Source: Planctomycetia bacterium | Lineage (GTDB): Bacteria; Planctomycetota; Planctomycetia; Pirellulales; PALSA-1355 | NCBI GenBank assembly: GCA_041497975.1 | Contig: JBGQHN010000001.1 | Location: 3,888 to 67,887 of the forward strand | Length of the DNA: 64,000 bases | Direction of reading: 5' to 3' | Shown: piece by piece, positions 21,098 through 41,592 of the stretch | Position numbering within the stretch: the first letter of the stretch is position 1 | Layout: every line of letters starts with the position of its first letter | The notes under the pieces: generated by a model | What the model saw: only the letters and a program-made list of their open reading frames with translations | Told to the model about the DNA's origin: nothing | Database searches by the model: none | Made by a program: the position numbers and the translations under genes

Positions 21098-22318
21098 CTA
21101 GCGCACCAGGCGTGCGTTGAGCCAATCGGCGTGGTCGAGCTCGTCGCCCCGATCGGCGTAGTCGACCAGCAAGCTTAGGCGTTTGGCCCCCGATACGTCG
21201 ACCGAGATCGGCACGGGCGGCTGGCCGCCGCGGATAATCTCGCTCGTGGCCCGCTCTTGCCAGGCGCCGCTGCCATCGTCGATGAAGACTCGAAACTCGA
21301 CGCTGCCGCGCTGGCCGGCTTCGGCGTCGATTGCCAGATCGGCTTCGAAGCGGCGATACGACCGGTCGAGATCGTACGTGATCCGCGCCGGGCTGTGCAT
21401 TCCCAGCCCTTTGGCATACAGCCGCTCGCCGGCACGCAACTGGGAGCCGAGCACGCTGCGGTCTGCCTGAAACGGCCACGTCAGTTGCAAATACGGAACG
21501 TGGCGGTAGCTGGACGGCTTGAGATCGGAAAGATATTCGATGCGGCCGCCGAACGGTTGCAAGGCAACGATCGCATCCGTCGGCGATTTTAATTCCGCGC
21601 CCCCGACCAGCTTCAAGCGGGCGCTGTTCTTGTCGGCCAATAGTTCGATTGCCGTCAGGCGGCTGCCGTCCCGAAAGCCGGCCAAAGTTCTGGGACCGCT
21701 GGGGCGTGACTTGTAGACCAGTGTGGGATTGAAAATGATCACCGAGATCTTGTCGACCTCGACGTCGACCTTTCCGGCGTTCGTCTCCAGCGGCACGACT
21801 TTCTGCTGCCAGCCGAGGATCGTGCCGGTCAATTCGTCGCCGTTGTCCAAGAGCAGACGATCGGTTTGGCCACCGGCCGTGGCAATGCGAGTCATCCACC
21901 CATCGAGCGTGGCCCGGTCTTGGAGCGATCGCAGGACGATGCCGGCCACTAGCTCCAGCGGCAGGCTGAAGTCGCCGAACACCTGCGAACCGCCGCGCAC
22001 TTCTTCTTTCTCGATCAGCGCCGTATCGGCCACGATCCAGCCGCCGCCGGCCAGAAAAATTCGAATCCCGCTTGCCGGTTCAACCAGTGCGCCCCACATC
22101 GCCAGGTCACCTGAGGGAATCTCGCGCTCGACCCCGGATTCGGCGAAGCGTAAATTCGACTTAGCGTCGGCGGCCACGAGCGCTCCGCGAAACGGCTTTC
22201 CTTCCGCGGGGATGCCTAGCGGCGACTCGCCAAAGACAGCGGCCAGCGGCACCGTGACGGCCAGGCACAGCGATGCCACAAGCACCTTTGACGTCGGTCG
22301 CAGCAACAGTCGTGGCAT
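21098..22318 (-). CDS. Exported NPCBM/NEW2 domain-containing protein
   Basis: Signal peptide MPRLLLRPTSKVLVASLCLAVTVPLAAV. The C-terminal ~140 aa (AKGLGMHSPARITYDL...FEADLAIDAEAG.RGSVEFRVFIDDG...LSLLVDYADRGDELDHADWLNARL) matches the NPCBM carbohydrate-binding module pattern. Its ATG directly follows the upstream TGA. Confidence 0.75.
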   Translation of the reverse strand: MPRLLLRPTSKVLVASLCLAVTVPLAAVFGESPLGIPAEGKPFRGALVAADAKSNLRFAESGVEREIPSGDLAMWGALVEPASGIRIFLAGGGWIVADTALIEKEEVRGGSQVFGDFSLPLELVAGIVLRSLQDRATLDGWMTRIATAGGQTDRLLLDNGDELTGTILGWQQKVVPLETNAGKVDVEVDKISVIIFNPTLVYKSRPSGPRTLAGFRDGSRLTAIELLADKNSARLKLVGGAELKSPTDAIVALQPFGGRIEYLSDLKPSSYRHVPYLQLTWPFQADRSVLGSQLRAGERLYAKGLGMHSPARITYDLDRSYRRFEADLAIDAEAGQRGSVEFRVFIDDGSGAWQERATSEIIRGGQPPVPISVDVSGAKRLSLLVDYADRGDELDHADWLNARLVR

Positions 22319-23410
22319 TCAGCGTTGAAAGATCGGTAGGAAGTTATTGGGCATTTGAAGAACGATGCATGCCATGCTGGTTCCGTATTCCATGCAGATC
22401 GAATCATTCCACGATCCGTCCTCGGCCTGGCGGGACACCAGCGCGTCGCGGACGGCCGGATACCACCTGGTCCAATACTCGCCTCCGGCGTGCCACATGG
22501 CCTGCACGGCGTAGTAGTGGCCGTAGAAATAATGGCTCTCGCGATTGAATTCGTTGGCCTGCGGCAGAAAGCCCATCAAGTAATCGAGTCCCTTTTTGAT
22601 CTCCGGACCCTCGTAGATGCCGGCGCTATACAAGGCGACGACCCCGGCAGCGGAGCGCGGAAATGCGCTTTGCCCGCCTTGGATCATGTACATGAAGCCG
22701 CCGTCGGGATTTTGACTTTTTTTGACGTATTCAGTGCAGCGGTCGATCGTCTCGCGGGGCACGAACAGGCCGGCATTGCGCGCCGCCCGCAGGGCCATCA
22801 CCTGGCAAATCGTGACGGAAATATCAGCGTCGCGACGCACCGGCTGGTAGCGCCAGCCCCCTTCATTATTCTGCGTGTTGACGATCAGGTGCACCGCCTT
22901 GGTCAGCTTTTCGCGAATGTCGCCGCGCATGGTCATGCCGTAACATTCGGCCAAGAACAGCGTGGCGAATCCGTGGCCATACATCGGGCCGTGGCTGCTG
23001 GCGTTCGGAATGTTGATAAATCCGCTCTCTTGCGTGTTGGCCAAGATGAAGTCGATGGCCCGGTTGACGTTGCGGCCATGGGGCCCGCGGCCCGGGGTGC
23101 TGCCACCCGACATGAATGCCATTCCGGCCAGCGCGCAAATCGCGACATTGCGGCTATAACCGCCGGACCGGAAAGACCCATCTTCATCCTGTCGCGTGGC
23201 GATCAAGTTCAACCCGCGTTCGATCGCCCGCGCGGCGGGCGGTGTGATGAGCTCGGCGGCTGTTTTTTCCGGATCTTTTGGCTGCGCGAAAGCGTGTCGG
23301 CCAATACTCGCCAGCGAGAAACCACCCGCCAGGGCCTGGCCGAGGAAGCGGCGTCGGTCGGCCCTATCCGCAGGCGGCTTCAATCGGTGAGGTGTTGCAC
23401 GATGTCGCAT
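22319..23410 (-). CDS. TAT-signal prenyltransferase/squalene-oxidase-repeat (terpene cyclase fold) protein
   Basis: RRRFLGQALAGGFSLASIGRHAFA is a twin-arginine signal. Four QW-like repeats are present (RQDEDGSF, QNNEGGWRY, SQNPDGGFMY, RQAEDGSWND), characteristic of the alpha/alpha-toroid prenyltransferase/SHC repeat family. Confidence 0.75.
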   Translation of the reverse strand: MRHRATPHRLKPPADRADRRRFLGQALAGGFSLASIGRHAFAQPKDPEKTAAELITPPAARAIERGLNLIATRQDEDGSFRSGGYSRNVAICALAGMAFMSGGSTPGRGPHGRNVNRAIDFILANTQESGFINIPNASSHGPMYGHGFATLFLAECYGMTMRGDIREKLTKAVHLIVNTQNNEGGWRYQPVRRDADISVTICQVMALRAARNAGLFVPRETIDRCTEYVKKSQNPDGGFMYMIQGGQSAFPRSAAGVVALYSAGIYEGPEIKKGLDYLMGFLPQANEFNRESHYFYGHYYAVQAMWHAGGEYWTRWYPAVRDALVSRQAEDGSWNDSICMEYGTSMACIVLQMPNNFLPIFQR

Positions 23411-23426
23411 GTTGCACTCCCGCGGG

Positions 23427-24239
23427 TCATTTCCTGTTCTGTTCCTCCGCCAAGCGCTTATAGTAACGTTCGATCATCAGTTCGTATTGTGGCAAAAATC
23501 GCTCCGGCGAGTTTTGCAACATTTGTTCGCGAGCCCGCTGGGGCAGATGTCCCCAAGCGTCCTTCAATAGCCCTTTGACCAATTCCGGATCGGGCCGCGC
23601 GTCTTCGGCCTTGCCCAGACGATCCGTGCTGTCTTGGGCCGGCTTGTTCGAATCCTTGCCCGACTTGCCGGCCGACGGTTTGGATTGCTGAACCTGTTGT
23701 CGCTTGCTGGTTTGCTGTTTCTTGTTCTTTGTCGACGCGGCCTGCTGCGCGGCGCGCTGCTGCTGGGCTTGTTCGATCAACTTAGCCAGGTCTTCGACAA
23801 TTCGCTGCTGCAGGTGCTCGGCGTGCGCGCGCTGGGCGCGATCGGTAATCAAACTCTCTGCGGACCGCATCTCTTGGCTGATATACGAAAGAGGGTCCTC
23901 TTCGGGGCTTGGCATGCCGATATCTTCGCCGTCAATAACGGATTGATCGAGTGGCTGCTCGCTCGACTTGTCACCAGCGGGGCGCTTTGACCGCCGGCTG
24001 TCCTTGGCATCGCCGGCGCCCTCAAGCAGTTCGTTGTCCAGATCCTTCAGTAGCGTCTCGTCGAGCGTGGGTTCCGCGGCGCTTTTTTTTGCCGCGGGTG
24101 GGGCGTCTTGGGGTTTAGAATCCGGTTCGCCGGCGGCATCGGCTGGTGCCAGCGCCAGCGTAAACGCCAACAGCCCGGCGCACGCGACGATGAGCGGAAC
24201 AGCCGGCGACGATCGCGAAAACCAGCACGCGTTAGCCAT
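23427..24239 (-). CDS. Secreted charged hypothetical protein
   Basis: 270 aa with a signal peptide (PLIVACAGLLAFTLALAPADA), an acidic then Q/K-rich low-complexity middle, and a conserved-looking C-terminus WGHLPQRAREQMLQNSPERFLPQYELMIERYYKRLAEE. It has an 8-nt overlap with the upstream gene. Confidence 0.6.
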   Translation of the reverse strand: MANACWFSRSSPAVPLIVACAGLLAFTLALAPADAAGEPDSKPQDAPPAAKKSAAEPTLDETLLKDLDNELLEGAGDAKDSRRSKRPAGDKSSEQPLDQSVIDGEDIGMPSPEEDPLSYISQEMRSAESLITDRAQRAHAEHLQQRIVEDLAKLIEQAQQQRAAQQAASTKNKKQQTSKRQQVQQSKPSAGKSGKDSNKPAQDSTDRLGKAEDARPDPELVKGLLKDAWGHLPQRAREQMLQNSPERFLPQYELMIERYYKRLAEEQNRK

Positions 24240-27200
24240 CAGAATCCTTTTCTACCGCCGCGCGTGGTTCGCCGGGGGGCGGTGCTATGTCGCCTGGCGG
24301 ACCCTCTTGGCGCACGTCAGGAAGCTTTTCGGGATCATCCTCTGGATTGTCCGCGGGGGGCTCGGCCAATTTGAGCGTCAAGTCCGCCAGTTTGCCCTGC
24401 TCGGCGGCAATCTCAGTTAATTCTTGATCGGCCGTTGCGGCGGCGTCGTCCTTGGGCGTAGTCAGGGTTCGATACCGACCGTTGAGATCTTCTTGCAAGA
24501 TCTTGAGCAACTTCAATTGGGTTAATACGTAGTTGCCGTCGGATCGAGCACCTTTTCCGCCTGCCGATCCGCCGCCTTCCGCGCCGCCGGACTTCGCTTT
24601 GGCCTTGTCTTCGAACGCCGTCAGCAATTGGGCCAGCCGCACCCGAGCCGCCTCCTGGCTGCCCTGTGTAGCGGTGCCGGTCTCGCGGTGTGTGAGCAAT
24701 TCGGCGGCCCGCGTCATTTGCTTGGCGGCCCCGCCGAGCGCCAAGTTGATGACTTCGGTGAGCGAGAGCTTTTCAGCCAATAGGGAAGTGTCGCCCTCCA
24801 GTGATTTCTGCTGGCGAGCCAGATCGTTGACCGTGCTGAGCTGAGCCCGCGTCAGGCGGCCCGCGCTGGCGCGCAAGTTCTCGATCCGCTCGGTTTCCTG
24901 GATGAGTTTTTTCTGGCGCTCGTGCAAGCTCTTGAGCGAGTCTTCCAGACGGGCCATCTGCTCGCGGGCCAAATCTTCTTCCGCTTGACGCCGTCGCTGC
25001 GCCAGTTGCTCTTGAGCTTCCTGCAGATCTTTTTCCGCCTTTTCGGCTTGTTGTTCGGCCGCCGCCGCGTCGCCCTGTTGCCCGGCGTTGCCCGCCTGCT
25101 GCATCTTGCCTGCCGCGCCCGAAGTGCTGCGACCGGCTTGCTCCGCCTGCAAGCGTTCCAGCCGCCGGGCCAGTCGGGCCGCCTCGTCCTCGAGTTTCTT
25201 TTGTTCGCGAGCCAGACGTTCGAGCTGCTGTTTTCGCTCGGCGTCCGGCTTGTCAGCCGCGGCGCGCATTTGCTTGCGTAGACCGGCCTGGCGCTCTCGG
25301 ATGTTGGAAAGCTGTTGTTCCGATTCGCGCAGCTGCTTGACCAGTCTGGTGAGTTCCTGCTCGCGCCGATTGGACAAGATCGCCATCAGGTCTTCGAGAT
25401 CCTTGGCGATCTTTGTCTGTTGCTCGACGGCCTGGCCGAGTTGATTTCGCTCCAGCTGTTGGCTCGACTGCCGCATTTGCCCGCTGATGGCTTGTTGCTG
25501 CGACTGGTGCAGTCCGTCGGAAATCGTCGCGGCCGAAAGAGGGTCGGTTTGTTGGAGCGACTGGGTCGTTTCGGCCATCTGCTGCTGGACTTTTTCCAGC
25601 CTGCGACTCAACTCGACCTGTTGGGCCGAAAGTTTTTTCAAGTCCGCCTGCTGCTGCGAGTCAAGATCTTTCAATTCCCGTCCCAGGGTCTTTTGACCGA
25701 TTTCCTTGGTGGCGCTGGCAATCGCTTCCTGATCGCGCTGCAGGTGCGCGACATCTCGGGCAAAGCGGCGGTAGTTGTCCCACTGGCCCAGTTCACTCAA
25801 CATGTTTTCCAGCGACGAAATCACCTGGTCCTGATTCGCTCCGGCGCTGGTGAGCGATTTGTTCACCAGTGGGTCGACCTGGGTTTGCGACGGAGTCTGG
25901 CCGGCGTCTTGAGGCAATTTGGACTGGGCCGTCTTGATCAAACTCGTCAGGTCACGCTCGATGGCATTCAAGTGTTGTTGGCCGAGCCGGTCGAGCTCCT
26001 CCATGATCGCGGTCATGTGCCGTTCGATTTCGGGGCTATCGACGCGGTTGTTGCCGAGATCGGTCAGAAAATCGCCGATCTGCGCCGGAATGCCCTCGGT
26101 CCGGCTCGTTAAGGTTCGCGTCACCTGGCGTTGATTCAGCTCGGCGCTCTGCGCATGGTCGACATCTTGTTTATTCAGTCGCCCGACCTGGTCCAATTGG
26201 ATCTCTAGTGACTTCGTCTGCGCGCGTGCATCCTGTTGCAACTTCAGCACGCGCTGTAACTCACCGACGATCAATTGCTGCCGTTGAGCAAGGCGTTCTT
26301 CGAGTTCCGCCGGCGTGATGATTGAAATCTGGCGGACGGTGCTCTTGCCTAGTTGCGGCACATAGTCACTGGCGGTGGCCCAAAACGTGAGTTGTGAACC
26401 GGTCTTGAGACCCAAATCCGCGAGCGACCAGCGATGTTCCAACACTCGCGTTTCGCCCAGGTGTCCGCCGACCAGCAGCCCCGGGGAAACCTGGGGGGGC
26501 ACTTTGTCGGGTCCCTGATGAATTGGTACGGCAAAGTCCTCCACGTCCGAGCGGTCCGAGCGGCTGAAGTGCAAGCCGATTTCGCGAACGGCCAGATCGT
26601 CTTTGACCGCGATCTTAAGCGGCACTTCGCCTTGCGGAGTCACGAAGATATTGCCCGTGGGTTGCTCGACGGTAACGGTCGGCACCTGATCCACGATTGC
26701 GCGGATTTCCCAGCGATCGTCGGCGCCCCCGATCAGACCTGGGCCATCTTCGAGTGCGATCCAGTAGGCGCCGGATTTGTCGATGACAAATGGGCTCTCG
26801 GCATCGGTACCCAGCGAGAACCCGTAAGCGTCCGCCGACAATTGCAAGCTCAGCTGGGGGCCATTTTCCTGGTGGATCTTGGCGCCGCGAAGCTTTTTTG
26901 TCGAAATGCCCGATAGCTCGACGCGAGTGCCGCGCAACGCGTAGATGTTCTTTTCGCACGACTCGACGGGCAAGCCGGTATAGTCCGGCGGATGCAGCGT
27001 CAGTTGCAACGAATCGAGCTTCGGAGGCTCGACCACCTCCAAGTGAATCCACTCCATCGAAGAATCGTCGCCCCCCTCGGCCCGATACCAAAATGGCCGA
27101 GTCACGTTTTCCTTTCGGGCGACCATTGTTCCATTCAGCAAGGTCATGGACTCGGATACTTCTTCGACGCTCGACGCGCCGGCATCATAGCGATAGTGGA

Positions 27201-27882
27201 TGCGAACTTCGTCGGGCACGCGGTGTTGGGCGTCCCGAACGAGTTCGACCTCGAAGGACTGGCCGGCGGCCAATCGCGTCGGAGCTTGCCGAAAAGCCAG
27301 ACGGTAGAACTTGGGCCAGCTTTCGCCGCCCAGGGGCCGGGCAAGCCGCCCCAGTGCAATGCGGGCAGCCGACGGCGACACGGCGAGAACTCCAAGCGCG
27401 ACGGCTCCCACGACGGCCGCCACCAGCAGCGCGCGACGCGTCGGTCGGCGCTCGAAGACGCTCGAAAAGTCCAAGCCTTCAACGTCGGACGCCGTCCTGA
27501 GTACTACCGCGCGGCGCAGGACCGCTGAGCCCGCCAGGGTGTCGGTCTCCGACTGCTTGAGAAACTGAATCGTGCTGGCCAGGCGGTCTGTCAAACTGGG
27601 GAATCGCCGCTCGATGCGTTGCGCAAGCTGGAGATCGTCCAACCGGCGGGCGAAACCGACGATCCAAAATCGAACGCAGGCCCACGCAAAAACAAGAACC
27701 ACCGCCAGGCTGCACATCAGCCGGATGCCAGGGTCTTGAAAACGAATGAAATAGTCCGCCAAGCCGAGCAGCAACACGGTCAGCGTCACCAGGCTGACGG
27801 TCCAGCTCAGGGCATACAAGGCCATCAGCCGGCGAGCCTGGAAACGCACCTGGCCAATTTTCTGTTCCAGCGGATGTGCCAT
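24232..27882 (-). CDS. Membrane-anchored giant coiled-coil protein (1216 aa; DUF4175-like topology, tentative)
   Basis: N-terminal TM helices (LMALYALSWTVSLVTLTVLLLGLADYF; LMCSLAVVLVFAWACVRFWIVGF), a beta-rich middle region, then about 600 aa of Q/E/R/L/A-rich heptad-like sequence and a Pro/acidic tail. Confidence 0.75.
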   Translation of the reverse strand: MAHPLEQKIGQVRFQARRLMALYALSWTVSLVTLTVLLLGLADYFIRFQDPGIRLMCSLAVVLVFAWACVRFWIVGFARRLDDLQLAQRIERRFPSLTDRLASTIQFLKQSETDTLAGSAVLRRAVVLRTASDVEGLDFSSVFERRPTRRALLVAAVVGAVALGVLAVSPSAARIALGRLARPLGGESWPKFYRLAFRQAPTRLAAGQSFEVELVRDAQHRVPDEVRIHYRYDAGASSVEEVSESMTLLNGTMVARKENVTRPFWYRAEGGDDSSMEWIHLEVVEPPKLDSLQLTLHPPDYTGLPVESCEKNIYALRGTRVELSGISTKKLRGAKIHQENGPQLSLQLSADAYGFSLGTDAESPFVIDKSGAYWIALEDGPGLIGGADDRWEIRAIVDQVPTVTVEQPTGNIFVTPQGEVPLKIAVKDDLAVREIGLHFSRSDRSDVEDFAVPIHQGPDKVPPQVSPGLLVGGHLGETRVLEHRWSLADLGLKTGSQLTFWATASDYVPQLGKSTVRQISIITPAELEERLAQRQQLIVGELQRVLKLQQDARAQTKSLEIQLDQVGRLNKQDVDHAQSAELNQRQVTRTLTSRTEGIPAQIGDFLTDLGNNRVDSPEIERHMTAIMEELDRLGQQHLNAIERDLTSLIKTAQSKLPQDAGQTPSQTQVDPLVNKSLTSAGANQDQVISSLENMLSELGQWDNYRRFARDVAHLQRDQEAIASATKEIGQKTLGRELKDLDSQQQADLKKLSAQQVELSRRLEKVQQQMAETTQSLQQTDPLSAATISDGLHQSQQQAISGQMRQSSQQLERNQLGQAVEQQTKIAKDLEDLMAILSNRREQELTRLVKQLRESEQQLSNIRERQAGLRKQMRAAADKPDAERKQQLERLAREQKKLEDEAARLARRLERLQAEQAGRSTSGAAGKMQQAGNAGQQGDAAAAEQQAEKAEKDLQEAQEQLAQRRRQAEEDLAREQMARLEDSLKSLHERQKKLIQETERIENLRASAGRLTRAQLSTVNDLARQQKSLEGDTSLLAEKLSLTEVINLALGGAAKQMTRAAELLTHRETGTATQGSQEAARVRLAQLLTAFEDKAKAKSGGAEGGGSAGGKGARSDGNYVLTQLKLLKILQEDLNGRYRTLTTPKDDAAATADQELTEIAAEQGKLADLTLKLAEPPADNPEDDPEKLPDVRQEGPPGDIAPPPGEPRAAVEKDSDG

Positions 27883-27986
27883 GCAAATTGTCCTCTCGCG
27901 GCCGAGCGTCCTGGTGCGGCCGTCCTGGCGCCTGCGGAGATCCGCTCATCCAAAACACGCGCCTTGGGACCCGCGATTCGTCGTTA

Positions 27987-30368
27987 TTATAGCATTCCCT
28001 TGCGTTTGCGCAGAATCCATTCCGACACCACCAGCCCTAAGAATGCAGCCAGCAGCCACCAGCGGTTCCAAAGAATTTCGGGCGGAAGCGTTTCGATTGG
28101 TACCTGGTGTCCGGGCGGCAACTCGTCGAGCAGCCTTTCCACGTCCGTGATGCGATAGAAACGTCCACGCGTGTCCTCGGCCGCGCGTTTCAGTTCTCCG
28201 GAGTCCATTTCGACGCGCTCCAGCTCGCCGGGCGGTGCCAGGACAAGAAAATCGGCTGAGGGGACTTTGCCCTCCAGCGTCGGCGCCGCGACCCACGCGT
28301 GATACTTTCCGTCCATGGGATCGCTAAACGCTCCCTCAAAAATGCCACGGTTCGTGGCATTGCGCTGCAATTTGACGCGTTGATTCTTCTGTCCTTCACG
28401 CTCCAGCACGACCGTCACTCCGTCGTCTTCAGCCGGCGCTTGTCGCTCATCGACGAAGCGGGCCCGCAATCGCACTACGTCGCCGCGGCGATACTCGCGG
28501 CGATCGGCCGCCAGTTCCACCGAGTTATCCTTGCCCAGCAGTTTCGAGCGGCTGAGGTAACGGACCGCCTGGACCCAGTAGCGGGCGAAGAAGACATCGC
28601 CCACGCGATAGCGCCACATCCAGGTGTCGTCGGTGGCGTGGAACAACACCTTGCCGGCGCCGACGTACTGCATCAAGAACACCGGCAGATGCCTGCCATC
28701 GGGGGCCAGCCGGGTCGGATGTTGGGCCAGCACGCGCGCCGCCGGCTTGATCTGCGGGGCCTCGAGCAGCCAATACAAGGGATGCAGGTCCTGCCAAATG
28801 CGCATGGTTTCAGCCTGGCTGTCACCCAATTGCATTTGCGGGCTGGCCAGGCCGAGTTCGGTCGGCTGCGCGACGAAGCCTTGATCGATCACGTGGCCGG
28901 TGTTGGGCGTGGTCACCGTGTCGAGATGAATGGGAAACAACGGCTCGAGCGGCGTGTTGCGGTATGCCGTCGGCGTAAATTGCGGTCCCGAGATAAACGC
29001 GATTCCGCCCCCCTTCTTCTCGACGAAATCGTTCAAATTGCTCAGCACGCTGGCGCTAAGATAGGTTGGGTTCACGTCGCCGAAAATCACTACGTCAAAT
29101 ACGAACAATTCCTCGCGTCGCACCGGAAAGACGCGCAGCGCCGTCTGATCCAACTCCGCGTATTCCAGGTCGGCGTCCTGCAAGACGGTTTTCAACTGAA
29201 TCGTGCTGTCGCGTTCCAGCATGTTCTTGAGATAGCGAAATTCGTAGCTGGGGTAGGCCTGCACGAGCAACACCTTGATCTGCTCCTTGCGCACGCTGAC
29301 CAATCGCGATTGGCGATTGTTTTCGACCTGGGCTTCGTCCGGCAGGTGCTCGACTTCGATCAGGTATTCGAATTCCCCGACCTTGGTGGGGCGGTACGGC
29401 AAATGCAACCGCTCGGGCGTACCGTCCTCGTTGATGGCGACCTTCATCTGCGCCAGCACGGTCGGGTCGTCCTTTTCGCGCAACGTGACCTCTACCGTTT
29501 TTCCGGCCAGGCCGCGCCCGATCAGCTTGTATTCGAAATTCACGATGTCGTCGACAAAAACGACTTCATCGACCAACAGATCCGCGAGCTCGAGGTCGAG
29601 AACAGGCCTTTCGCTGCCCAGTCCGACGGTGAACAGCGGAACGCCCTTGCGCCGCGCGTAGTGAGATGCGTCGGACAGACTGATCCCATCGGTGTTGATG
29701 CCGTCGGTGAGCAGAATGACGGCTGCCGGAGGCGTACCGCGCAGGTCGCTCAGCACGTAGCGCAACCCGGTACCCAGACGGCTGCTCTCTCCGCGCGGTT
29801 GTGCCTGTTCCACCGCGTCGCGCAATTCGACGAGCGAACCCGATTGGGCCCGCGCCGCGCTGGATACAAAGTACAGCTTGAGTCGATAACGACGGGCAAT
29901 GGCGCTCAGCACGTCGGTCTTTTTATCCAGAAGCACGGACTTGGCAAGGTTCAGGCGATTCGGCAGGTCGAATCCAGCCGCCTCCATCCGGCTGGCGACG
30001 AGCGCGTTGAGTTTCTTGTCATCATACCGATCGTCGATTCCCATGCTCGCCGAATCGTCAACAACGATTGCCACGGTTGGCAAGCCGGTGCGGCGCAGGG
30101 AGACCGTGAACTCGGCGATCATGAAGACGACGATGGCCATGGCCGCCAGCCTGAACGCAACCAGCACGGCCTTGGCGACGCGTCCGGCCGCGGTGCTTTC
30201 GCGCGCATAGAAGTACACCACCCAGGCCACGATCGAAATCGCCAAGAGCAACGTCACCCAGGGAGCCCAGGCCCAAGTGTTTTCCAGGCTCCAGGTCGTG
30301 CCTTCGCCCGGACTGACGGCTTCGACGCCGAGCCATTTTTCCAACCAGTTGGGAAGGATGCCGCTCAT
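27987..30368 (-). CDS. Membrane vWA domain protein (BatB-like)
   Basis: ATG 30368 forms an ATGA overlap with the BatA stop. Two N-terminal TM helices are followed by the vWA MIDAS motif VAIVVDDSASMG. A C-terminal Rossmann-like segment DVVIFGDVNP...KKGGGIAFISG and a final TM helix complete the protein. Confidence 0.8.
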   Translation of the reverse strand: MSGILPNWLEKWLGVEAVSPGEGTTWSLENTWAWAPWVTLLLAISIVAWVVYFYARESTAAGRVAKAVLVAFRLAAMAIVVFMIAEFTVSLRRTGLPTVAIVVDDSASMGIDDRYDDKKLNALVASRMEAAGFDLPNRLNLAKSVLLDKKTDVLSAIARRYRLKLYFVSSAARAQSGSLVELRDAVEQAQPRGESSRLGTGLRYVLSDLRGTPPAAVILLTDGINTDGISLSDASHYARRKGVPLFTVGLGSERPVLDLELADLLVDEVVFVDDIVNFEYKLIGRGLAGKTVEVTLREKDDPTVLAQMKVAINEDGTPERLHLPYRPTKVGEFEYLIEVEHLPDEAQVENNRQSRLVSVRKEQIKVLLVQAYPSYEFRYLKNMLERDSTIQLKTVLQDADLEYAELDQTALRVFPVRREELFVFDVVIFGDVNPTYLSASVLSNLNDFVEKKGGGIAFISGPQFTPTAYRNTPLEPLFPIHLDTVTTPNTGHVIDQGFVAQPTELGLASPQMQLGDSQAETMRIWQDLHPLYWLLEAPQIKPAARVLAQHPTRLAPDGRHLPVFLMQYVGAGKVLFHATDDTWMWRYRVGDVFFARYWVQAVRYLSRSKLLGKDNSVELAADRREYRRGDVVRLRARFVDERQAPAEDDGVTVVLEREGQKNQRVKLQRNATNRGIFEGAFSDPMDGKYHAWVAAPTLEGKVPSADFLVLAPPGELERVEMDSGELKRAAEDTRGRFYRITDVERLLDELPPGHQVPIETLPPEILWNRWWLLAAFLGLVVSEWILRKRKGML

Positions 30369-32560
30369 CGAGTCGTATGTCCAAACCGCCACGCCAAGAA
30401 CGTTTCGGCAAACAACAAGCCCAACACGCAGTAGAGCAGGGTCTTGTGCACTCCGCTGCGATGGCTGATGTTGGGCGAATCGGCCTCATCGAGGCTGGAA
30501 CGCTTGTGCGTCGTGAATTCCTTCGGCAATTCCTCGGGAGCCAATTTCGTCAGATCGCTTTCGCTGGTGTCGATGTTGACGGCGAACGCCTCGTTGCGCG
30601 AGACGGGTGCGCCCAAGTCAACGCGATACACTCCGCTCTCGTGCGTGTCGGCAAACGACCAGCGGCTCGACTGGCGGTCCATCGCCATCCGAACATCCTC
30701 GTGCGACCCATTTGGACTGGTCACGCTCACCGTGGCGCGCGTCGCCAAGGCTTCCAGGGAATCGCCCAGCACCTGGCCGACTTCCACGTTGTGTTCGGTC
30801 ATCTGTCCGCGAACGGCCAATGCCAGGATCTCCTGTACGATGGGCACAAAGCTAGGCCAGGCCGGCAGCGTGGTCCACGGCTCAGCCCCCGCGCCCGTCG
30901 ATGACAGCGATCCTTCCGTGGCGATCAAAATCGAGCGCCCTCGGTGAATCGTTTCTTCCACGATCGCCGCATCGCCGCCGTCGAATGCCAGCGCTATGCG
31001 CGCCGTCGGCTCCGGCGCCAGGCGGTAGTATTTGTAAACGGGCGTTGTCAACAAACCAGCTTGCTCGCGCCCCTGAAAAGCGGCCACCAGCGGGTGGCGA
31101 TAGTCGAGCGGGTCGAATCGATACTGATACTGGGGCTCGGCGATCAACTCCTTCAGCCGCGCGGGCAGCACCCGAACTCCTTGCTCGCCGGCCAGTTCAC
31201 GGTTGTAGCGATCGGGCAGCACCTGGTCGCCCAGAAAGAACACCAACCCGACGCCGTGCTTCAAAGCATTCTCCAGCACGCGGGCCTCGTTGGACGTGAA
31301 CTGCGCCACGTTGCATAAGAAGATGCAGTCATATCGCGACAAGTCCCGCTCCAGAAGCGCGCTTTCGGGTATGACCTCGGGTTGCACCGCGCCCGGCGCG
31401 TTCGCGTTTCCCGCATCGGGATTCAGCGCCAATGCCAGGTAATCGGTGGCGCCTGTCATGTGCTGCGTGGCGGGCTTTCCGTTGACACATAAGACGCGCA
31501 GTTGCTCCTTTACGGGCACCGAGAGCCAACGGTGATTGTCGATATCCAGCAGATCGGTGCCGAGCCGGACTTCGACGACGTGATCGCCCGGCGTGTCGAA
31601 GCGGTGCGAGAACGATACCCGGGCTTGTTCGCCGGCGGCCACGTCGACGTAAGCTTCCTTGATCCGTTTGTCATCGACGTGCAATTCGAGTGGGTGATGA
31701 TTGCGAGGCTGCGTGCCGAAGTTGCGGACCTGCGCCGAAACGGTGACCTCGCGGGTCGTCGTGGCGAACGGCTCATCGGCCGCGACGTTCGTGACGGCCA
31801 GGTTTTCGGCTCCGGCCTGTCCCAGGTCGACCACGACCAGCGTGGCCTGTTGGGCAAGTCGCTCCAGGCGCTGACGATATTCAGCCGCTTCCGCGTCCTT
31901 CAGTTCGGGCACCCAGGTGTTGCGACCCAAATCGGTGAGAAAGTACACTTCCTTGCGCATTTCGCCCGCATCTTCGGCCGATTGCAAGATTCGTTCGACA
32001 CGCACCAACGTGGCCGGCAGATCGGCTCCCGCGTGCGGCAGTTTCAAGTTCTCGATTTCTTCCAGAAAATCACGGGGTTCGGCAGCCGGAGAACCGACGA
32101 TCGTACTGGGCGGCGAAGCCATCAAAACGAGCGTGAAGGCGTCGCCCTGTGCGCTCTCGTCGACAATTTGGGCAGCCAGTTGCTTGGCCCGCTCGAAGCG
32201 ACTCTTGTCGGTCGGTTTATAGCCCATGGAGTATGAGCCGTCGATGACCAGCACTTTCAACGTCCGTTGGCCGGGTACGAAGCCCAGCCCCGCCTGCTCC
32301 AAGAACGGTTGTGCCACGGCGAACACGACCAGCGCGATGATCAGAGTTCGCACCAACAGCAGCAGCCATTGTTCGAGCCACATCCGGCGCGAATTCTTGC
32401 GCATCGCGGCCAGCAGATATTCGATCGCGGCCCAAGAGACTTCTCGGTAGCGTCGCTTGTTCCACAAGTGAATCAAGATTGGCGCGGCGGCGGCCGCCAG
32501 CCACCCGAGCATCAGGAGGTTGCCGAAGCCAAAGGCCAAAAGCGGTGGCAAGCTGCCCAT
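30365..32560 (-). CDS. BatA (aerotolerance regulator N-terminal) domain / vWA protein
   Basis: The N-terminus LLAFGFGNLLMLGWLAAAAAPILIHLWNKRRYREVSWAAIEYLL is the BatA_N pattern. MIDAS motif VLVIDGSYSMG. Later segment YDCIFLCNVAQF...HGVGLVFFLGD, and a C-terminal TM helix. Confidence 0.85.
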   Translation of the reverse strand: MGSLPPLLAFGFGNLLMLGWLAAAAAPILIHLWNKRRYREVSWAAIEYLLAAMRKNSRRMWLEQWLLLLVRTLIIALVVFAVAQPFLEQAGLGFVPGQRTLKVLVIDGSYSMGYKPTDKSRFERAKQLAAQIVDESAQGDAFTLVLMASPPSTIVGSPAAEPRDFLEEIENLKLPHAGADLPATLVRVERILQSAEDAGEMRKEVYFLTDLGRNTWVPELKDAEAAEYRQRLERLAQQATLVVVDLGQAGAENLAVTNVAADEPFATTTREVTVSAQVRNFGTQPRNHHPLELHVDDKRIKEAYVDVAAGEQARVSFSHRFDTPGDHVVEVRLGTDLLDIDNHRWLSVPVKEQLRVLCVNGKPATQHMTGATDYLALALNPDAGNANAPGAVQPEVIPESALLERDLSRYDCIFLCNVAQFTSNEARVLENALKHGVGLVFFLGDQVLPDRYNRELAGEQGVRVLPARLKELIAEPQYQYRFDPLDYRHPLVAAFQGREQAGLLTTPVYKYYRLAPEPTARIALAFDGGDAAIVEETIHRGRSILIATEGSLSSTGAGAEPWTTLPAWPSFVPIVQEILALAVRGQMTEHNVEVGQVLGDSLEALATRATVSVTSPNGSHEDVRMAMDRQSSRWSFADTHESGVYRVDLGAPVSRNEAFAVNIDTSESDLTKLAPEELPKEFTTHKRSSLDEADSPNISHRSGVHKTLLYCVLGLLFAETFLAWRFGHTTR

Positions 32561-32567
32561 AAAGCGA

Positions 32568-33470
32568 TTAATTTAAGCGGTTCATTCTGGAAGCGAGATA
32601 GCTCGACAGCGCGATTTCCAGCGACTGATCGGTTCGCAACAGTACGTAATCGATGCGTTGCCCGCGGCAGCCCTTGCGGACCGCTTGCAAAAACTTTCCG
32701 AACTCTTCCAGATAGGCCCGGCGCAGCGCGCGCGGGTCGGTCAACACGTCGGGCAGCTCCTCCATGCCGCGAAACAACGTCGTCTGGCGGAACGGAAACT
32801 CGAGCTCGGCGGGGTCGAGCACGTGAAACACCACCACCTCGTGGCGCCGGTGTCGAAAATGCTTCAGCCCGGCCATCATCGACGGGACGTTGTCGAACAA
32901 GTCGCTCAAGATCAGCACCAGCCCGCGCCGTTTTAGCCGCTCGGCCAAATCGTGAAAAATTGGCCCGGTCTGCGTTTTGCGCTGCGGTTCAGAATTCTCC
33001 ATTACGTACAATAGCTGCTTGAGATGCGAGGGGTTGCTGCTCGCGCGAATCAGCGCTCGAATCTCGTTGTCGAACGTGACCAGTCCCACGCTGTCCTGCT
33101 GCTGCAAAATCAGATACGACAGCGACGCCGCCACGCACTGGGCGTATTCCAGCTTGGACAGCGGAGCGTCGGCGCTCTTGTAGCGCATGCTTTCGCTGGT
33201 GTCGACGAGCATGTAGCTGACCAGATTGGTCTCTTCCTCATATTGCTTGAGGTAGAATTTGTCGGTTTTGCCGAACACTTTCCAGTCGACGTAGCGCAGG
33301 TCGTCGCCCTGCGAGTATTCGCGATGTTCGGCAAACTCGATCGAAAAGCCGTGATAAGGACTGCGATGCACGCCCGACACGTAGCCCTCCACGATCGACC
33401 GGGCCCGTAGCTCCAGTCCTTGGAGCTTAGCCAATGTCCGCGGATCTAAAAATTTGAGGTTGTTTTCCAC
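32568..33470 (-). CDS. DUF58 domain-containing protein
   Basis: [17 protein letters not shown]..., [40 protein letters not shown] and a degenerate vWA-like C-terminus. This is the canonical MoxR partner. Confidence 0.85.
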
Positions 33471-34479
33471 TGGACGCGGCCTCGTCGTCGATGGGGATGG
33501 TTTCGATCAGTCGTTGGATGATGTCATCGGGCTTGACTCCCTCAGCCTCGGCGTTGAAGTTGGTCATGATTCGATGTCGCAGCACGGGGAAGGCCACGGC
33601 GCGAATATCGTCGCTGTTGACGTAATAGCGTCCATGCAGCACTGCCCGGGCCTTGGCGCCCAGCACCAGGAACTGGCTGGCCCGCGGGCCGGCTCCCCAG
33701 CTCACGTAGTCTTGAATGAAGTCGGGCACGTGCCCCTTCTCGCGCCGCGTCAGGCGCGTGAATTGCAGCGCATAGCGGGCGATGTGATCGGCTACCGGCA
33801 CTTTGCGCACGATCTGTCCCAGGGCCACGATTTGTTCGGCATTGAGCGTGGGCGTAATCTCGAACTGTTTGTCGGTCGTTGTCTGCCGGACGATTTGGAA
33901 TTCCTCCTCCTCGTCGGGATAGTCGACAAAGATATTGAACATGAAGCGATCCAGCTGCGCTTCGGGCAGTGGATAAGTCCCTTCCTGTTCGATGGGGTTT
34001 TGGGTGGCCAGCACGAAGAACGGCTGCTCCAACAGATGCCGCTTGCCGCCCACGGTGATCTGATGTTCCTGCATCGCTTCCAATAGGGCCGCTTGCGTCT
34101 TGGGGGGAGTGCGGTTGATTTCGTCGGCCAGGATGACGTTGGCGAAGATCGGGCCCTCGAGAAACCTGAACTCGCGCGTGCCCGTCAACTTGTCTTCCTG
34201 AATCACTTCCGTGCCCGTGATGTCAGCCGGCATCAGATCGGGCGTGAATTGAATGCGGCTGAACTTCAGCGAAAGCGAATCGGCCAACGTGCGAATCATC
34301 AACGTCTTGGCCAGGCCGGGTACCCCGACGAGCAAGCAGTGCCCCCGCGCAAATAGCGAAATCAGCAGTTCCTCGATCACGTGCTGCTGGCCGACAATTA
34401 CTTTGCCAAGTTCCGCGGTAATGCGCTGAAAGGCCTCGTTCAACTGGTGCACCTGTTGGATGTCGTCGTCTGGAAGCAT
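33427..34479 (-). CDS. MoxR family AAA+ ATPase
   Basis: Walker A GVPGLAKT, Walker [10 protein letters not shown], and [22 protein letters not shown] (the MoxR signature region). Confidence 0.95.
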
Positions 34480-34576
34480 GAGTGGGTCCGATTGCTAGGG
34501 AATCAGTGACATATCGAACGAAGTGCCTTGGCGGTCTTGCCAGGTGTCAACGGACGCCAAAAAAAGTGCCAGGGCT

Positions 34577-37036
34577 TCAAGGTTCCTTGATTGTGCTCGT
34601 GCGGGGAGTCGGCCCCGAGGTCGAGCGTTGGTCGAGGGCGACCGCAGCACCTGCCGCCTTCGGCCGCTGGCCCTGCTGACGAAAGCCGAACAACTTGTCG
34701 GCCGTGGCAATCAACAACAAGTCGCCGGACGCCACAAGGTTGCCGCCGCCGGCGCCGCGCTGGGTGAGTGCGATCGGGTCGCGCATCTTCGCCGCAGGTG
34801 CAGCAGCATCCTGATCGAGAATATAGAGCTCGCTGGCGGTGGGCCAAATGACTTGATCGCCCATCAAGATCCCGCGACCGTGGCCCAAGGGGCTCGTATC
34901 GGGCCAGCGCTTGACGATCTTGCCGCGGCGGGCGTCGATCCACCACAACGCATCGCCGCTGGCTATGAGCGTGTCGTGTCCGACTCCGAGCAGGTGAACG
35001 GCGTCTTCCGGCAAATGACTCTCCCATAGCATTTCGCCGCTGCCGGCGTCGAGCGCAAAGATCGATTCGCAATCGGACGGCGCGACAAATAGCGTTCCGC
35101 GATGATATACGCACGGATTCAGATCGCGATAAAAGTGGGCCGTGCGCTTGTCCTGGCCGTCGGGTCCGGCTTTTTTCGCGCGCCGATAGAGCGTGGCCCA
35201 TTGCAGACGTCCGTCGCGCGCCGATATCGCCGCCACGGCGCCCAGGTTGGTGTTGTAGTACAACGTTCCCTGCTCCAGAGTGAGCAGGTTGTGCGTGATT
35301 TCCTCGGACTGGCCTCCGCTGGGCGTTTCGGCGGCGCAAACCATGGTCCGCCATCGCAGCCGCTTTGTTTGGGCGTCGAAACAGGCCACGTGGGCCTGGG
35401 GCCTGACGTCGCTCTTTCTCATGGCCACGTACAAGTCCGATCCGTCCACGATCGGCGAGCCTTCGAAGGCCCACTTTTCATCGTCGGATTTTTCCAGCGA
35501 CATTTTCCAGACCAGCCGGCCTTGTGCCGAGAGATCGAGACACACCAAATATCCGTTCATGCGGACGTCCAGCGATTCGAGCGGCCGGCTCGTGACCTGC
35601 GATCCCATGCGGGCATACAGCTTGTTGTCGTGCACGGTCATGGTGAAGCGCGGCACGCCCAGGCGGCCGCTCGTGCGGCCGGCCAACGCGGCGTTGTCAT
35701 CGGAAAAAATCTCGCCCGGCGGCCTTTTCGGATCGTCGCGCGGCCAGGCCGGCGCGCCGGTTTTCGAGTTGAAGGCGAAGATTCTGCCTTGATCGCAAAC
35801 AAGCACCAGGTCGCCGACGATCAAGGGGTGATAACTCAACAGGTGCTGGGCATCCTCGCCAATGCGGCGCAAACTGTACGCGCGCGAGTTCGATACGTCG
35901 GCCGACAGCGGTTCGCCCAAGTTGATGGGATCCCAGGCTTGAACGCCGAGATCGAGATTGCGCGGAGAGATCTTGTTGCGGCCAAGATCTCCGGCAAAGG
36001 TGGGCCAATCTTCGGTCGGCTTTACGTCGGGCCAATTTTCGGCCGCCGTAATGAGCGCCTTAAGCGCGTCGGCGTATTTTACGTCGCGTCCGGCCAATCG
36101 TCCTTCGGCGCCAGGATGAAGCTCCGCAAACGCCCCTAGTTCTTCACGAGCCCGTTGGAGCGAGCCCTCCATGATCGAAACCAAGATCAAGCGCGCCCGA
36201 ACGTCGGCCGAACGCAAAGTTTTGCCCGGATATGCCAGCCGGGTCAGCGGCAAACGCTGGTTTTTCCAGAACCGGACCAATGTGGCGGAGATTTCATCGG
36301 GCAGAATTTCGTCGCCGCGAAGCTGATAGAACTGCCCGGAGGCGGTTGAGTCCATGGCGTACCACTTATCCAAGAGCGCCGCCTCGCCAGCCGGCAGGTT
36401 GGCCTGCTGTCGGACGGCCTCAAAACGGGCGGCTGCAATACGCGCTGGAGGGACCTCGATCAGCCGCTCCCAATAGCGCCGTGCCGCCCCGTAATTGCTC
36501 CGTTCCAATTCGATTTCGCCCAATGCCCACAGGGCATCGTCGCCCCACGAGCTGCAAAACAGCTTTTCGACGACGTCGGCCAGCCGCGCGGTATTGCGCC
36601 GGCCCAGCCCCTCCTGGTACCATTGTTCGGCCAAGGGGTCGACGCGTTGGCGATAGAGGGCCAGCGCCTCGGCAGGCAGCGAAGCAAGCTGCACGTGACA
36701 GTAATCCGCCAAATTGACGTACCGCGCTGGCACAAGGGGTATCATCCTTGCGCCATGGTTTTCCATGATTTGGCGGAGCGTTTCGACGGCCTCATCCCAT
36801 TGCCCGTCGGTCACGTAGGCTCGGACTCGTTCCAGGTGAGCCCGCACGGCGCTGTCCGCCTGATCGAGATTTACCGATCCCGATAGCTCGATCGGTCCCG
36901 GAGAGAATTGAGCCCAAGCGCGCGACGCGGTCCCAGCGCCTAACATGCCTGCCACCGCTAACCATGCGGCCGCTTGAACTCGGCAGTATCGGCATGAGCG
37001 CCGCTTTGCCAAAACGTGCGGCTGCCGGCGAGGCAT
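34577..37036 (-). CDS. Exported TPR + PQQ-like beta-propeller repeat protein
   Basis: ATG 37036 gives a signal-like N-terminus (AAAWLAVAGMLGAGTASRAWA). A helical TPR-like N-terminal half is followed by repeated beta-propeller blades (e.g. LYVAMRKSD...VACFDAQTKRLRWRT; IFALDAGSGEMLWES). The TTG at 37087 is an alternative start. Confidence 0.75.
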   Translation of the reverse strand: MPRRQPHVLAKRRSCRYCRVQAAAWLAVAGMLGAGTASRAWAQFSPGPIELSGSVNLDQADSAVRAHLERVRAYVTDGQWDEAVETLRQIMENHGARMIPLVPARYVNLADYCHVQLASLPAEALALYRQRVDPLAEQWYQEGLGRRNTARLADVVEKLFCSSWGDDALWALGEIELERSNYGAARRYWERLIEVPPARIAAARFEAVRQQANLPAGEAALLDKWYAMDSTASGQFYQLRGDEILPDEISATLVRFWKNQRLPLTRLAYPGKTLRSADVRARLILVSIMEGSLQRAREELGAFAELHPGAEGRLAGRDVKYADALKALITAAENWPDVKPTEDWPTFAGDLGRNKISPRNLDLGVQAWDPINLGEPLSADVSNSRAYSLRRIGEDAQHLLSYHPLIVGDLVLVCDQGRIFAFNSKTGAPAWPRDDPKRPPGEIFSDDNAALAGRTSGRLGVPRFTMTVHDNKLYARMGSQVTSRPLESLDVRMNGYLVCLDLSAQGRLVWKMSLEKSDDEKWAFEGSPIVDGSDLYVAMRKSDVRPQAHVACFDAQTKRLRWRTMVCAAETPSGGQSEEITHNLLTLEQGTLYYNTNLGAVAAISARDGRLQWATLYRRAKKAGPDGQDKRTAHFYRDLNPCVYHRGTLFVAPSDCESIFALDAGSGEMLWESHLPEDAVHLLGVGHDTLIASGDALWWIDARRGKIVKRWPDTSPLGHGRGILMGDQVIWPTASELYILDQDAAAPAAKMRDPIALTQRGAGGGNLVASGDLLLIATADKLFGFRQQGQRPKAAGAAVALDQRSTSGPTPRTSTIKEP

Positions 37037-37540: not shown

Positions 37541-37632
37541 TGCGAAACCGAATCTTGCACGTTTCCAGTTTTGGAGCGCCAACCTATCATAGTGGCTGCC
37601 GCGCGTCGCGACCAGTTCGAGGCGTGCTAAAC

Positions 37633-40540: not shown

Positions 40541-40542
40541 GG

Positions 40543-41511: not shown

Positions 41512-41592
41512 TCGTGGAAAGTCGTCGATCGACAGCGCTCGCGCTTTCGGCGACGACCAGACCCCCGGCCGGCCGAGCCAAACGAACCGTCG

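Follow-up and report, generated by a model that had tools for sequence, protein, structure and literature searches.

Bat-type operons, in which a MoxR AAA+ ATPase is encoded together with a DUF58 protein and proteins carrying von Willebrand factor A (VWA) domains, are widespread and occur in Bacteroidota, spirochetes, alphaproteobacteria and methylotrophs. To our knowledge, no client is known for such an operon outside of methanol dehydrogenase (MDH) maturation. Here, we analyzed a related block of genes in a 64,000-nucleotide stretch of a Planctomycetia bacterium genome (assembly GCA_041497975.1, contig JBGQHN010000001.1, positions 3,888 to 67,887; hereafter the window, whose own numbering is used throughout). 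The block occupies positions 21098-37087 on the minus strand and comprises nine genes that encode, from first to last, a β-propeller protein, MoxR, a DUF58 protein, a BatA-type membrane protein, a second membrane VWA protein (VWA2), a 1216-aa coiled-coil protein, a 270-aa secreted protein, an (α/α)6 barrel protein and a protein with an NPCBM domain. On the basis of sequence, we propose that these genes form one functionally linked block, conserved across Planctomycetota, that is a lineage-specific elaboration of the MoxR(AAA_3)-DUF58-BatA/VWA-VWA-DUF4175 inner-membrane system and would act as a trans-membrane machine on periplasmic partners, and we give this proposal an even chance of being correct.

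Comparison with described MoxR/VWA systems

Of the Bat-like MoxR/VWA sets that we found, Mxa alone has a demonstrated biochemical outcome. The incorporation of Ca2+ into periplasmic MDH depends on every one of MxaR, S, A, C, K and L, and the MoxR, DUF58 and two VWA members of the set have been proposed to form a MoxR/VWA complex (PMC12276312). A first-pass annotation of the window, made from the sequence alone, had stated that no substrate or mechanism is known for modules of this kind, which is out of date in light of the requirement for the Mxa set in Ca2+ incorporation into MDH (PMC12276312). Like the Mxa-type clusters, the planctomycete block has MoxR, DUF58 and two membrane VWA proteins in one cluster. 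The likeness extends to individual components, namely MoxR, a DUF58-type protein (MxaS), two more VWA proteins (MxaC and MxaL) and a co-encoded periplasmic β-propeller, with MDH being the periplasmic client in the Mxa case. However, the propeller of the block is BamB/PQQ_2-like with tetratricopeptide repeats (TPR) and is not an MxaF dehydrogenase, and the block has no gene for MxaJ, MxaI or cytochrome cL. It further differs from Mxa by the addition of a DUF4175 stalk, a 270-aa partner, an (α/α)6 barrel and a CBM51 protein, and by VWA proteins that are much larger, at 731 and 793 aa, and that carry immunoglobulin (Ig)-like and GATase1-like regions.

A second relative is the RL3499-RL3502 operon of Rhizobium leguminosarum, which reportedly has the composition MoxR-DUF58-BatA_N membrane protein-DUF4175. 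Taken at this reported composition, it shares with the block MoxR, DUF58 and a TIGR02226/BatA_N protein, followed by a long low-complexity membrane protein that is DUF4175 in the operon and DUF4175-like in the block. Mutation of the operon is cited as causing envelope and morphology defects (Vanderlinde et al. 2011, cited in PMC5700661). The block differs in having two VWA-bearing membrane proteins, in having a divergent DUF4175-like protein whose C-terminal partner is a separate gene, and in adding three or four conserved periplasmic proteins (propeller, barrel and CBM51).

The BatI operon and the spirochete bat operons resemble the block in their MoxR, DUF58 and BatA_N components, in two membrane VWA proteins with periplasmic metal ion-dependent adhesion site (MIDAS) motifs, in their TPR partners and in a suspected envelope role (PMC3557215, PMC5700661). 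Unlike BatI, the block is without BatD: no match to BatD (PF13584) or to an SH3 Pfam family was found in the nine block proteins, five of which were searched to E = 10. Its TPR are confined to the propeller protein, and its SH3-like repeats are present only in a structural model, joined to CBM51. BatI, in turn, has no DUF4175 stalk, 270-aa protein or barrel.

Two further systems, both of which occur in planctomycetes, are the MoxR-vWA ternary conflict systems (PMC7159879) and the MoxR-vWA-YebA transglutaminase-like systems (PMC3495828). As in the block, a MoxR-vWA chaperone/co-chaperone couple is accompanied by further conserved components. However, those systems carry hypervariable effectors or a cytoplasmic-loop peptidase, and the block has neither; its MoxR belongs to the AAA_3 type, and all of its accessory proteins are predicted to be exported. 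The MoxR-vWA pair of the conflict systems derives, according to its authors, from CoxD-CoxE-type systems (PMC7159879). When the block was searched with defence models, PADLOC returned one marginal match only (E = 3e-4, to DolB).

We found no description of the extended cluster in the literature searched (on MoxR, DUF58, BatA, DUF4175 or NPCBM in planctomycetes). Within that literature, the MoxR-DUF58-BatA/VWA core and the DUF4175 stalk are already known, and the new part is that four further genes, for the 270-aa partner, the (α/α)6 barrel, the four-repeat/CBM51 protein and the TPR/propeller protein, are added to them in a conserved manner.

Extent of the block and conservation of its gene order

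The first-pass annotation had described a head-to-tail run of eight minus-strand genes from MoxR to NPCBM. All eight open reading frames (ORFs) are present where it had placed them, and an independent gene caller produced identical products of 300, 731, 793, 1216, 270, 363 and 406 aa on identical contigs of the same organism (uncultured planctomycete metagenome-assembled genome [MAG] GCA_041478475.1), confirming the frames and their arrangement. Proteins related to the block products carry Pirellulales names. The run does not end at MoxR. Because the same strand also carries the TPR/PQQ-like propeller gene (34577-37087), because the DUF983 gene at the 5' boundary is divergent and because apgM, which follows the NPCBM gene at the 3' boundary, is convergent, the run is one of nine genes, and the eight-gene description has to be extended accordingly.

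Most of the genes in the run are closely packed. The propeller gene lies 97 nt upstream of MoxR, MoxR and DUF58 overlap by 44 nt, DUF58 and BatA are 7 nt apart, and BatA and VWA2 share an ATGA overlap. A gap of 104 nt then separates VWA2 from the coiled-coil gene, which overlaps the 270-aa gene by 8 nt; the barrel gene follows after 16 nt and the NPCBM gene after 0 nt, its ATG standing directly after the barrel stop codon. Scanning 20.5-38.5 kb for promoters and terminators revealed sites no commoner than in shuffled sequence and was uninformative on transcript structure. Judged by transmembrane (TM) segments or signal peptides, the predicted products include three inner-membrane proteins and four exported soluble proteins, with MoxR and DUF58 being cytoplasmic.

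We examined the conservation of this gene order in a sample of one genome per species, anchored on an alignment of the coiled-coil protein, which yielded 79 loci, all named Pirellulales, Thermoguttaceae, Pirellulaceae or similar. Counts were taken over those loci with enough sequence for the gene being tested. At 43 of 48 loci the coiled-coil gene is followed by the 270-aa, barrel and NPCBM genes, and at 37 of 43 it is preceded by MoxR, DUF58, BatA and VWA2. The propeller gene is found upstream of MoxR at 36 of 42 loci. Coiled-coil identity falls to 36% across this sample, and the convergent flanking gene apgM was detected at only 24 loci.

Since the genome search retains the closest relatives only, we assembled a second, unranked sample from metagenomes by scanning for DNA that encodes the barrel motif HGPMYGHGFA. 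This yielded 80 loci with barrel identities of 43-86%. The loci were scored with profile hidden Markov models (HMMs) built from the genome orthologs, as tblastn alone undercounted divergent NPCBM-like and coiled-coil orthologs. Where there was room, the barrel gene has as same-strand neighbours the 270-aa gene (34/42 loci), the coiled-coil gene (12/13), VWA2 (6/7) and BatA (2/2), and an NPCBM-like gene lies downstream of it at 35 of 40 loci. Some of the NPCBM-like matches are weak (20-50 bits), in ORFs that have the right size, the right position and an LLxNGDxxxG motif.

The order is kept in metagenome loci whose coiled-coil identity is just 20-28%, and one locus with 28% identity (L136) has all nine genes, the propeller gene upstream of MoxR included. 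Exact-sequence look-ups led from three order-bearing loci to MAG proteins of Phycisphaeraceae (L090), Phycisphaerae (L107) and Gemmataceae (L147), with taxonomy taken from the names of MAG proteins in 90% identity clusters. In Pfam searches, the Phycisphaeraceae locus matched BatA_N and VWA and gave weak DUF4175 and NPCBM matches, and the Gemmataceae locus matched NPCBM. The presence of the order in these three loci places it in two classes of Planctomycetota. Synteny limited to MoxR-DUF58-BatA, with freely varying downstream genes, which the first-pass annotation had named as the result that would speak against it, did not occur; instead, linkage was observed across Pirellulales, Gemmataceae and Phycisphaerae loci. 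As far as gene linkage and predicted location go, its suggestion of one conserved multi-protein envelope system, as opposed to a minimal Bat operon, is thus supported.

Predicted architecture of the encoded proteins

MoxR (33427-34479) is a predicted cytoplasmic AAA+ ATPase of the AAA_3 type (AAA_3 E = 1e-64, 216.8 bits against a Pfam cut-off of 27; AAA_lid_2 E = 5.5e-19, 68.1 bits against 22.7). A match to the bpMoxR model (E = 2.9e-12) scores far lower, at 46.6 bits. Its Walker A motif, GVPGLAKT, is the MoxR-type variant GxxGxAKT and is kept in 36 of 38 orthologs, and the hhhDE pattern of its Walker B motif, ILADEINR, is kept in 37 of 38; ortholog identity is mostly 70-88%. The DUF58 protein (32568-33470, 300 aa) is likewise predicted to be cytoplasmic, no TM segment having been found in it, and would be a VWA-like adaptor of the MxaS type (Pfam DUF58 E = 9e-43, 146.4 bits against 23.4; VWA_2 E = 6e-8). 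It has a MIDAS-like motif of its own, DTSES, the third in the block, with DxSxS kept in 38 of 39 orthologs. The propeller protein (836 aa), encoded by the first gene of the block, is predicted to be secreted, with a signal peptide-like N-terminus, weak TPR matches and a BamB-type, PQQ-like propeller (PQQ_2 E = 1e-20). Its NCBIfam scores for BamB and PQQ dehydrogenases fall far short of the cut-offs (PQQ_enz_alc_DH, 21 bits against 480).

Two large membrane proteins follow. The BatA-type protein (30365-32560, 731 aa) has an N-terminal TM hairpin (TIGR02226), a VWA domain, a CARDB domain, a GATase1-like region and a C-terminal TM segment, and it was identified by both Pfam and NCBIfam (BatA_N [PF07584] E = 7e-16, 58.9 bits against 25.9; TIGR02226 E = 3e-19, 69 bits against 23.05; VWA_2 and CARDB also match). 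VWA2 (27987-30368, 793 aa) has a TM hairpin similar to that of BatA that gives no BatA_N match, followed by a VWA domain (Pfam VWA E = 5e-8), a GATase1-like region, a weakly matching MG2-like Ig domain and a C-terminal TM segment. Its middle region is weakly paralogous to BatA, and its Phycisphaeraceae ortholog weakly matches the GATase1-like Glyco_hydro_42M domain. The two proteins thus share a common plan of TM hairpin, VWA domain, Ig-like domain, GATase1-like-looking region and C-terminal TM segment. Their MIDAS motifs are conserved, DGSYS of BatA in 43 of 45 orthologs and DDSAS of VWA2 in about 50 of 51. The Walker A/B and MIDAS motifs that the first-pass annotation called intact are therefore present in orthologs as well, and its domain assignments (MoxR, DUF58, BatA_N/vWA, vWA, prenyltransferase and NPCBM) all held up in Pfam searches. 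The bulk of both membrane proteins is predicted to be periplasmic by the positive-inside rule and, in the case of BatA, also by analogy with the Borrelia BatA-like homolog BB0173, whose VWA domain has been shown experimentally to be periplasmic (PMC5700661). No solved relative of BatA, VWA2 or the coiled-coil protein was found in sequence searches of the PDB, the coiled-coil protein having been searched by profile.

The coiled-coil protein (24232-27882, 1216 aa) is predicted to have three TM segments, a cytoplasmic loop at residues ~78-149 and a periplasmic β-rich domain at ~190-560, after which come ~600 helical, heptad-rich residues and a C-terminal tail that is acidic. The loop, 70 residues between TM2 and TM3, is conserved and arginine-rich, has invariant residues and is predicted to be cytoplasmic. 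A crude heptad score is raised at residues 526-1085, and 67% of the positions from 560 to 1150 are occupied by D, E, K, R, Q, L or A. The protein matches DUF4175 (PF13779) with E = 8e-6 and 24.6 bits, under the cut-off of 27.3, and the match covers profile positions 189-328 only. Among its homologs, 18 of 21 match DUF4175 at E up to 1e-3, the best at 6.5e-12, and its Phycisphaeraceae ortholog matches the same profile region with E = 0.004. The architecture of the family, N-terminal TM segments and a long low-complexity extracytoplasmic C-terminal region, is present as well. Judged by its sequence and that of its homologs, the 1216-aa protein is probably a divergent DUF4175 protein, in or near that family. 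As such, it would be a regular member of the known MoxR-DUF58-BatA-DUF4175 operon type, and not the addition to a Bat core that the first-pass annotation had taken it to be. Two side observations concern this gene. The AT skew of the plus strand is strongly negative (-0.315) at positions 24001-26000 of the window, which coincides with the Q/E/K/A-rich helical half of the minus-strand stalk gene; this appears to be a coding-composition effect and not a replication signal. At one related locus (L033:1310-13552), a lone DUF4175-like gene follows genes for two very large CarboxypepD_reg-repeat proteins and a zinc-ribbon protein.

The 270-aa protein (23427-24239) begins with a signal peptide, continues with an acidic, Q-rich stretch and ends in a conserved module of 80 residues, WGxLPxRxRExML...FLPxYExxIExYYxRLA. 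It gave no Pfam or NCBIfam match. A search with the module retrieved 1859 clusters at 50% identity, nearly all of 230-300 aa with the module at the C-terminal end. The earlier description of this product as a secreted charged protein was correct as to secretion and charge and left out the conserved module, which marks a large family. Within the block, this is the least conserved member (27-63% identity). It is fused to the coiled-coil protein in five cases (L039, L063, L064, L107 and P0338, the last of 1452 aa), and the fusion at L107 is a single ORF of 1428 codons. We considered whether the 270-aa protein could be a detached DUF4175 C-terminus; this idea was not confirmed, as the Pfam match is absent even at E up to 10. 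Its link to the stalk is therefore drawn from the fusions and from adjacency. Both proteins have acidic stretches, in the tail of the stalk and within the 270-aa protein, that are plausible candidates for MIDAS ligands.

The barrel protein (22319-23410, 363 aa) is predicted to be a periplasmic, single-domain (α/α)6 barrel that belongs to the prenyltransferase/terpene-cyclase superfamily. Both SQHop_cyclase_C (35.5 bits, Pfam cut-off 26.1) and Prenyltrans (35.8 bits, cut-off 26.5) match it above threshold, each with E about 1e-8, and its AlphaFold2 (AF2) model is a single (α/α)6 barrel with a pLDDT of 75. Foldseek matched this model (probability 1.00, TM-score about 0.58, E about 1e-5) to single-domain squalene-hopene cyclase (SHC)-like proteins, the AprG transaldolase, MstE, the MmpH hydrolase and GH105. 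The fold is certain. At 55-89% identity, this is the best-conserved accessory gene, on par with the ATPase. The HGPMYGHGFA motif is nearly invariant, and a C-terminal LPIFQR is kept in 46 of 51 orthologs. The first-pass annotation had assigned the protein a twin-arginine translocation (Tat) signal. A twin-arginine motif, RRRFL, is indeed present, and RRxFL is conserved in orthologs of the Pirellulales type, but in those of the Phycisphaerae type (L090, L107 and L166) Sec-like signals replace it, so Tat export is not essential to the family.

Several more specific identities for the barrel were considered. Squalene-hopene and oxidosqualene cyclases are two-domain proteins of about 620-730 aa. 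With one barrel in 363 aa and scores of 34.9 bits against 322.7 for TIGR01787 and 23.2 against 431.1 for TIGR01507, the protein is not one of these. The only D-x-D run in the barrel is DADIS, at residues 194-198; the segment that contains it (160-240) aligns with positions 423-498 of drimenyl diphosphate synthase, which come after the catalytic D303 of that enzyme, and reading DADIS as a cyclase DxDD motif is unsupported by the alignment to solved cyclases. No α-subunit gene of the prenyltransferase type was found in the block by Pfam. Complement C3 appears only far down the Foldseek list and no CxEQ thioester motif was seen by eye, which speaks against a C3 thioester-containing domain, and no LanC structure is among the Foldseek matches, which speaks against a LanC-like protein; both identities were rejected.

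The last gene of the block (21098-22318) encodes a 406-aa secreted protein with a strong NPCBM match (Pfam E = 7e-38, 130.2 bits against 23.9). Its AF2 model (pLDDT 91) has four small five-stranded β-barrel repeats (residues 34-76, 85-128, 153-195 and 210-256) followed by a CBM51 domain, a carbohydrate-binding module for which Foldseek returned CBM51 structure 2vmg (TMt 0.85, rmsd 2.2 Å). By topology, and in this predicted model only, the repeats are SH3-like. At one locus with a stand-alone barrel-NPCBM pair (L096:4634-6319), a second protein of 561 aa with a weak SQHop_cyclase_C match is encoded just downstream, which hints at paralogous barrel proteins in some lineages.

Several features outside the block were also observed. 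A cytochrome c oxidase cluster lies just upstream of it at 38991-50320 on the minus strand and includes SCO1/SenC (38991-40823) and COX1 (45202-46998). The divergent DUF983 gene (37540-38121), which lies between the block and this cluster, is syntenic in 14 related loci. Farther upstream, a 1471-aa ORF (51298-55713, minus strand) combines PDZ, cytochrome c and FixO-like domains in an unusual multi-domain cytochrome. At the other end of the window, a 940-aa ORF without a Pfam match (10341-13163, minus strand) overlaps the end of a 964-aa protein with TPR and Peptidase_MA_2 domains (12988-15882, minus strand).

Proposed function and alternative explanations

In the mechanism that we propose, a MoxR hexamer and the DUF58 adaptor would engage conserved cytoplasmic loops of BatA, VWA2 and the DUF4175-like protein. 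These three proteins would expose MIDAS-VWA, Ig-like and GATase1-like domains and the helical stalk of ~600 residues to the periplasm, where the stalk would pair with the secreted 270-aa protein. The machine would then act on or position the co-encoded barrel, its four-repeat/CBM51 partner, which may bind envelope glycan, and possibly the TPR/propeller protein. ATP hydrolysis would drive the loading (of a divalent metal, for example), assembly or remodelling of a periplasmic complex, for which Mxa offers a precedent. The stalk/270-aa pair and the barrel/CBM51 pair would be the clients or partners, with envelope glycan as the final target, and the physiological output would most likely be maintenance of the cell envelope or cell wall. 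We favor an ATP-driven loading, assembly or remodelling machine because of the Mxa and RL3499-RL3502 precedents.

Several considerations weigh against this proposal. We know of no Bat-type system with a known route from the cytoplasmic ATPase to the periplasmic domains. When all of the bat genes were deleted in Leptospira biflexa, no phenotype resulted (PMC3557215). Within one order, synteny may be partly inherited collinearity, and the two gaps of ~100 nt in the block (propeller/MoxR and VWA2/coiled coil) could be internal promoter sites. The genes are also found apart: the barrel-NPCBM pair stands alone in seven metagenome loci, in unrelated contexts (transposases, ProRS, a GFO/IDH oxidoreductase), the coiled-coil gene stands alone in six genome loci, and three loci (L048, L068 and L078) have no MoxR or DUF58 within 10 kb.

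Other broken blocks are informative as to where the seams lie. L078 has the coiled-coil, 270-aa and barrel genes only. At a Pirellulaceae MAG locus (L084, 139-9852), VWA2 is parted from the coiled-coil gene by a defence island, directly upstream of the latter, whose genes encode a DUF1156 DNA methylase, an SNF2/PLD helicase, GmrSD and a HEPN protein. Together with the fusions, these exceptions delimit three sub-modules, namely propeller-MoxR-DUF58-BatA-VWA2, coiled coil-270-aa and barrel-NPCBM. The three are usually contiguous, not always, and the block is modular and not indivisible. The first-pass annotation had called the core hard-wired to the downstream genes, which is right as regards conserved linkage and too strong as regards the loci where barrel-NPCBM or the coiled coil occurs alone.

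Such modularity is what would be expected if the MoxR-DUF58-BatA-VWA core, the DUF4175/270-aa stalk and a periplasmic, glycan-active barrel and CBM51 pair were independent units juxtaposed mainly by ancestry, with the pair acting on polysaccharide by itself and simply sharing the transcript. The stand-alone pairs and coiled-coil genes, the island that splits L084 and the two intergenic gaps are all in keeping with this explanation, as are the resemblance of the barrel to sugar-acting (α/α)6 enzymes (AprG, MmpH and GH105) and the lectin nature of CBM51. However, the order persists from Pirellulales to Gemmataceae and Phycisphaerae loci at 20-28% coiled-coil identity, which is deeper than the synteny of the apgM flank, and the spacing from the coiled-coil gene to NPCBM is tight (an overlap, then 16 nt, then 0 nt). 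In broken blocks such as L078 and L084, the barrel/NPCBM genes usually remain with the coiled-coil and 270-aa genes. We therefore regard juxtaposition by ancestry as rather unlikely.

The functional linkage that we propose also admits a more specific form. In this form, BatA/VWA proteins and a DUF4175/270-aa stalk that spans the periplasm would transmit the action of a MoxR/DUF58 motor to a dedicated pair of cell wall-acting enzymes, made up of the barrel and the SH3-like/CBM51 lectin, so as to load, position or switch it, and the whole would be a Planctomycetota-specific trans-envelope machine. So detailed a picture strikes us as distinctly unlikely to be right in full.

A different role for the barrel would be that of a true isoprenoid enzyme of the periplasm (a class II terpene cyclase or else a prenyltransferase) that acts on a polyprenyl or hopanoid-type envelope lipid and is matured by MoxR/VWA. 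MoxR systems commonly mature enzymes (PMC12276312), and the conservation of the barrel (55-89%) is as expected of an enzyme. SQHop_cyclase_C and Prenyltrans score above their Pfam cut-offs, and the best fold matches in the PDB are single-domain SHC-like proteins, MstE and drimenyl diphosphate synthase. However, the fold scores are modest and are equaled by those of sugar-acting enzymes, no DxDD or DxDTT motif could be placed, and a single 363-aa domain stands against the two-domain architecture of cyclases. The invariable neighbour of the barrel is, moreover, a lectin and not a lipid-handling protein. An isoprenoid enzyme thus appears improbable.

The BatA_N domain and the MoxR-DUF58-VWA-VWA order recall the BatI operon of Bacteroides fragilis and, with it, a system for aerotolerance or oxidative stress. 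The cytochrome c oxidase/SCO1 cluster just upstream would fit such a role, and the Borrelia homologs respond to oxygen (PMC5700661). On the other hand, Pfam and NCBIfam revealed no redox domain in any of the nine proteins, BatD (PF13584) is absent, as is an SH3 Pfam domain of the BatE kind, and a divergent gene separates the oxidase cluster from the block. Furthermore, oxidative-stress tolerance was unchanged after deletion of all of the Leptospira bat genes (PMC3557215). We consider an aerotolerance system decidedly improbable. Lastly, it is scarcely credible that the block is a conflict or defence system of the 'ternary' MoxR-vWA-β-propeller kind in which NPCBM acts as the sensor: MoxR does match bpMoxR, a β-propeller gene adjoins it and NPCBM domains serve as sensors in some conflict systems (PMC8195603, PMC7159879), but the AAA_3 score is far higher (216.8 bits against 46.6), there is no PADLOC system match and no effector, VMAP, iSTAND or FtsH component, the accessory proteins are all predicted to be exported, among them the NPCBM protein with its signal peptide, whereas conflict-system NPCBM is intracellular, and the genes, far from being variable or patchy, show high conservation and a fixed order in the planctomycete lineages that were sampled.

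Under our proposal of a linked block that acts across the inner membrane, the locus offers concrete candidate clients or partners for a Bat-type system, namely the stalk, the barrel, the lectin and the propeller, all predicted to be exported and all with recognizable folds. Even if this proposal is wrong, the analysis assigns a 'hypothetical' protein of 1216 aa to DUF4175 or its vicinity and delineates the family to which its 270-aa partner belongs. The planctomycete envelope is atypical and poorly understood, and a conserved nine-gene envelope cluster is a reasonable target for genetics. Should the trans-envelope machine prove to be real, a Bat-type system would for the first time have a defined client and output, and the machine could be a building block of the unusual planctomycete envelope.

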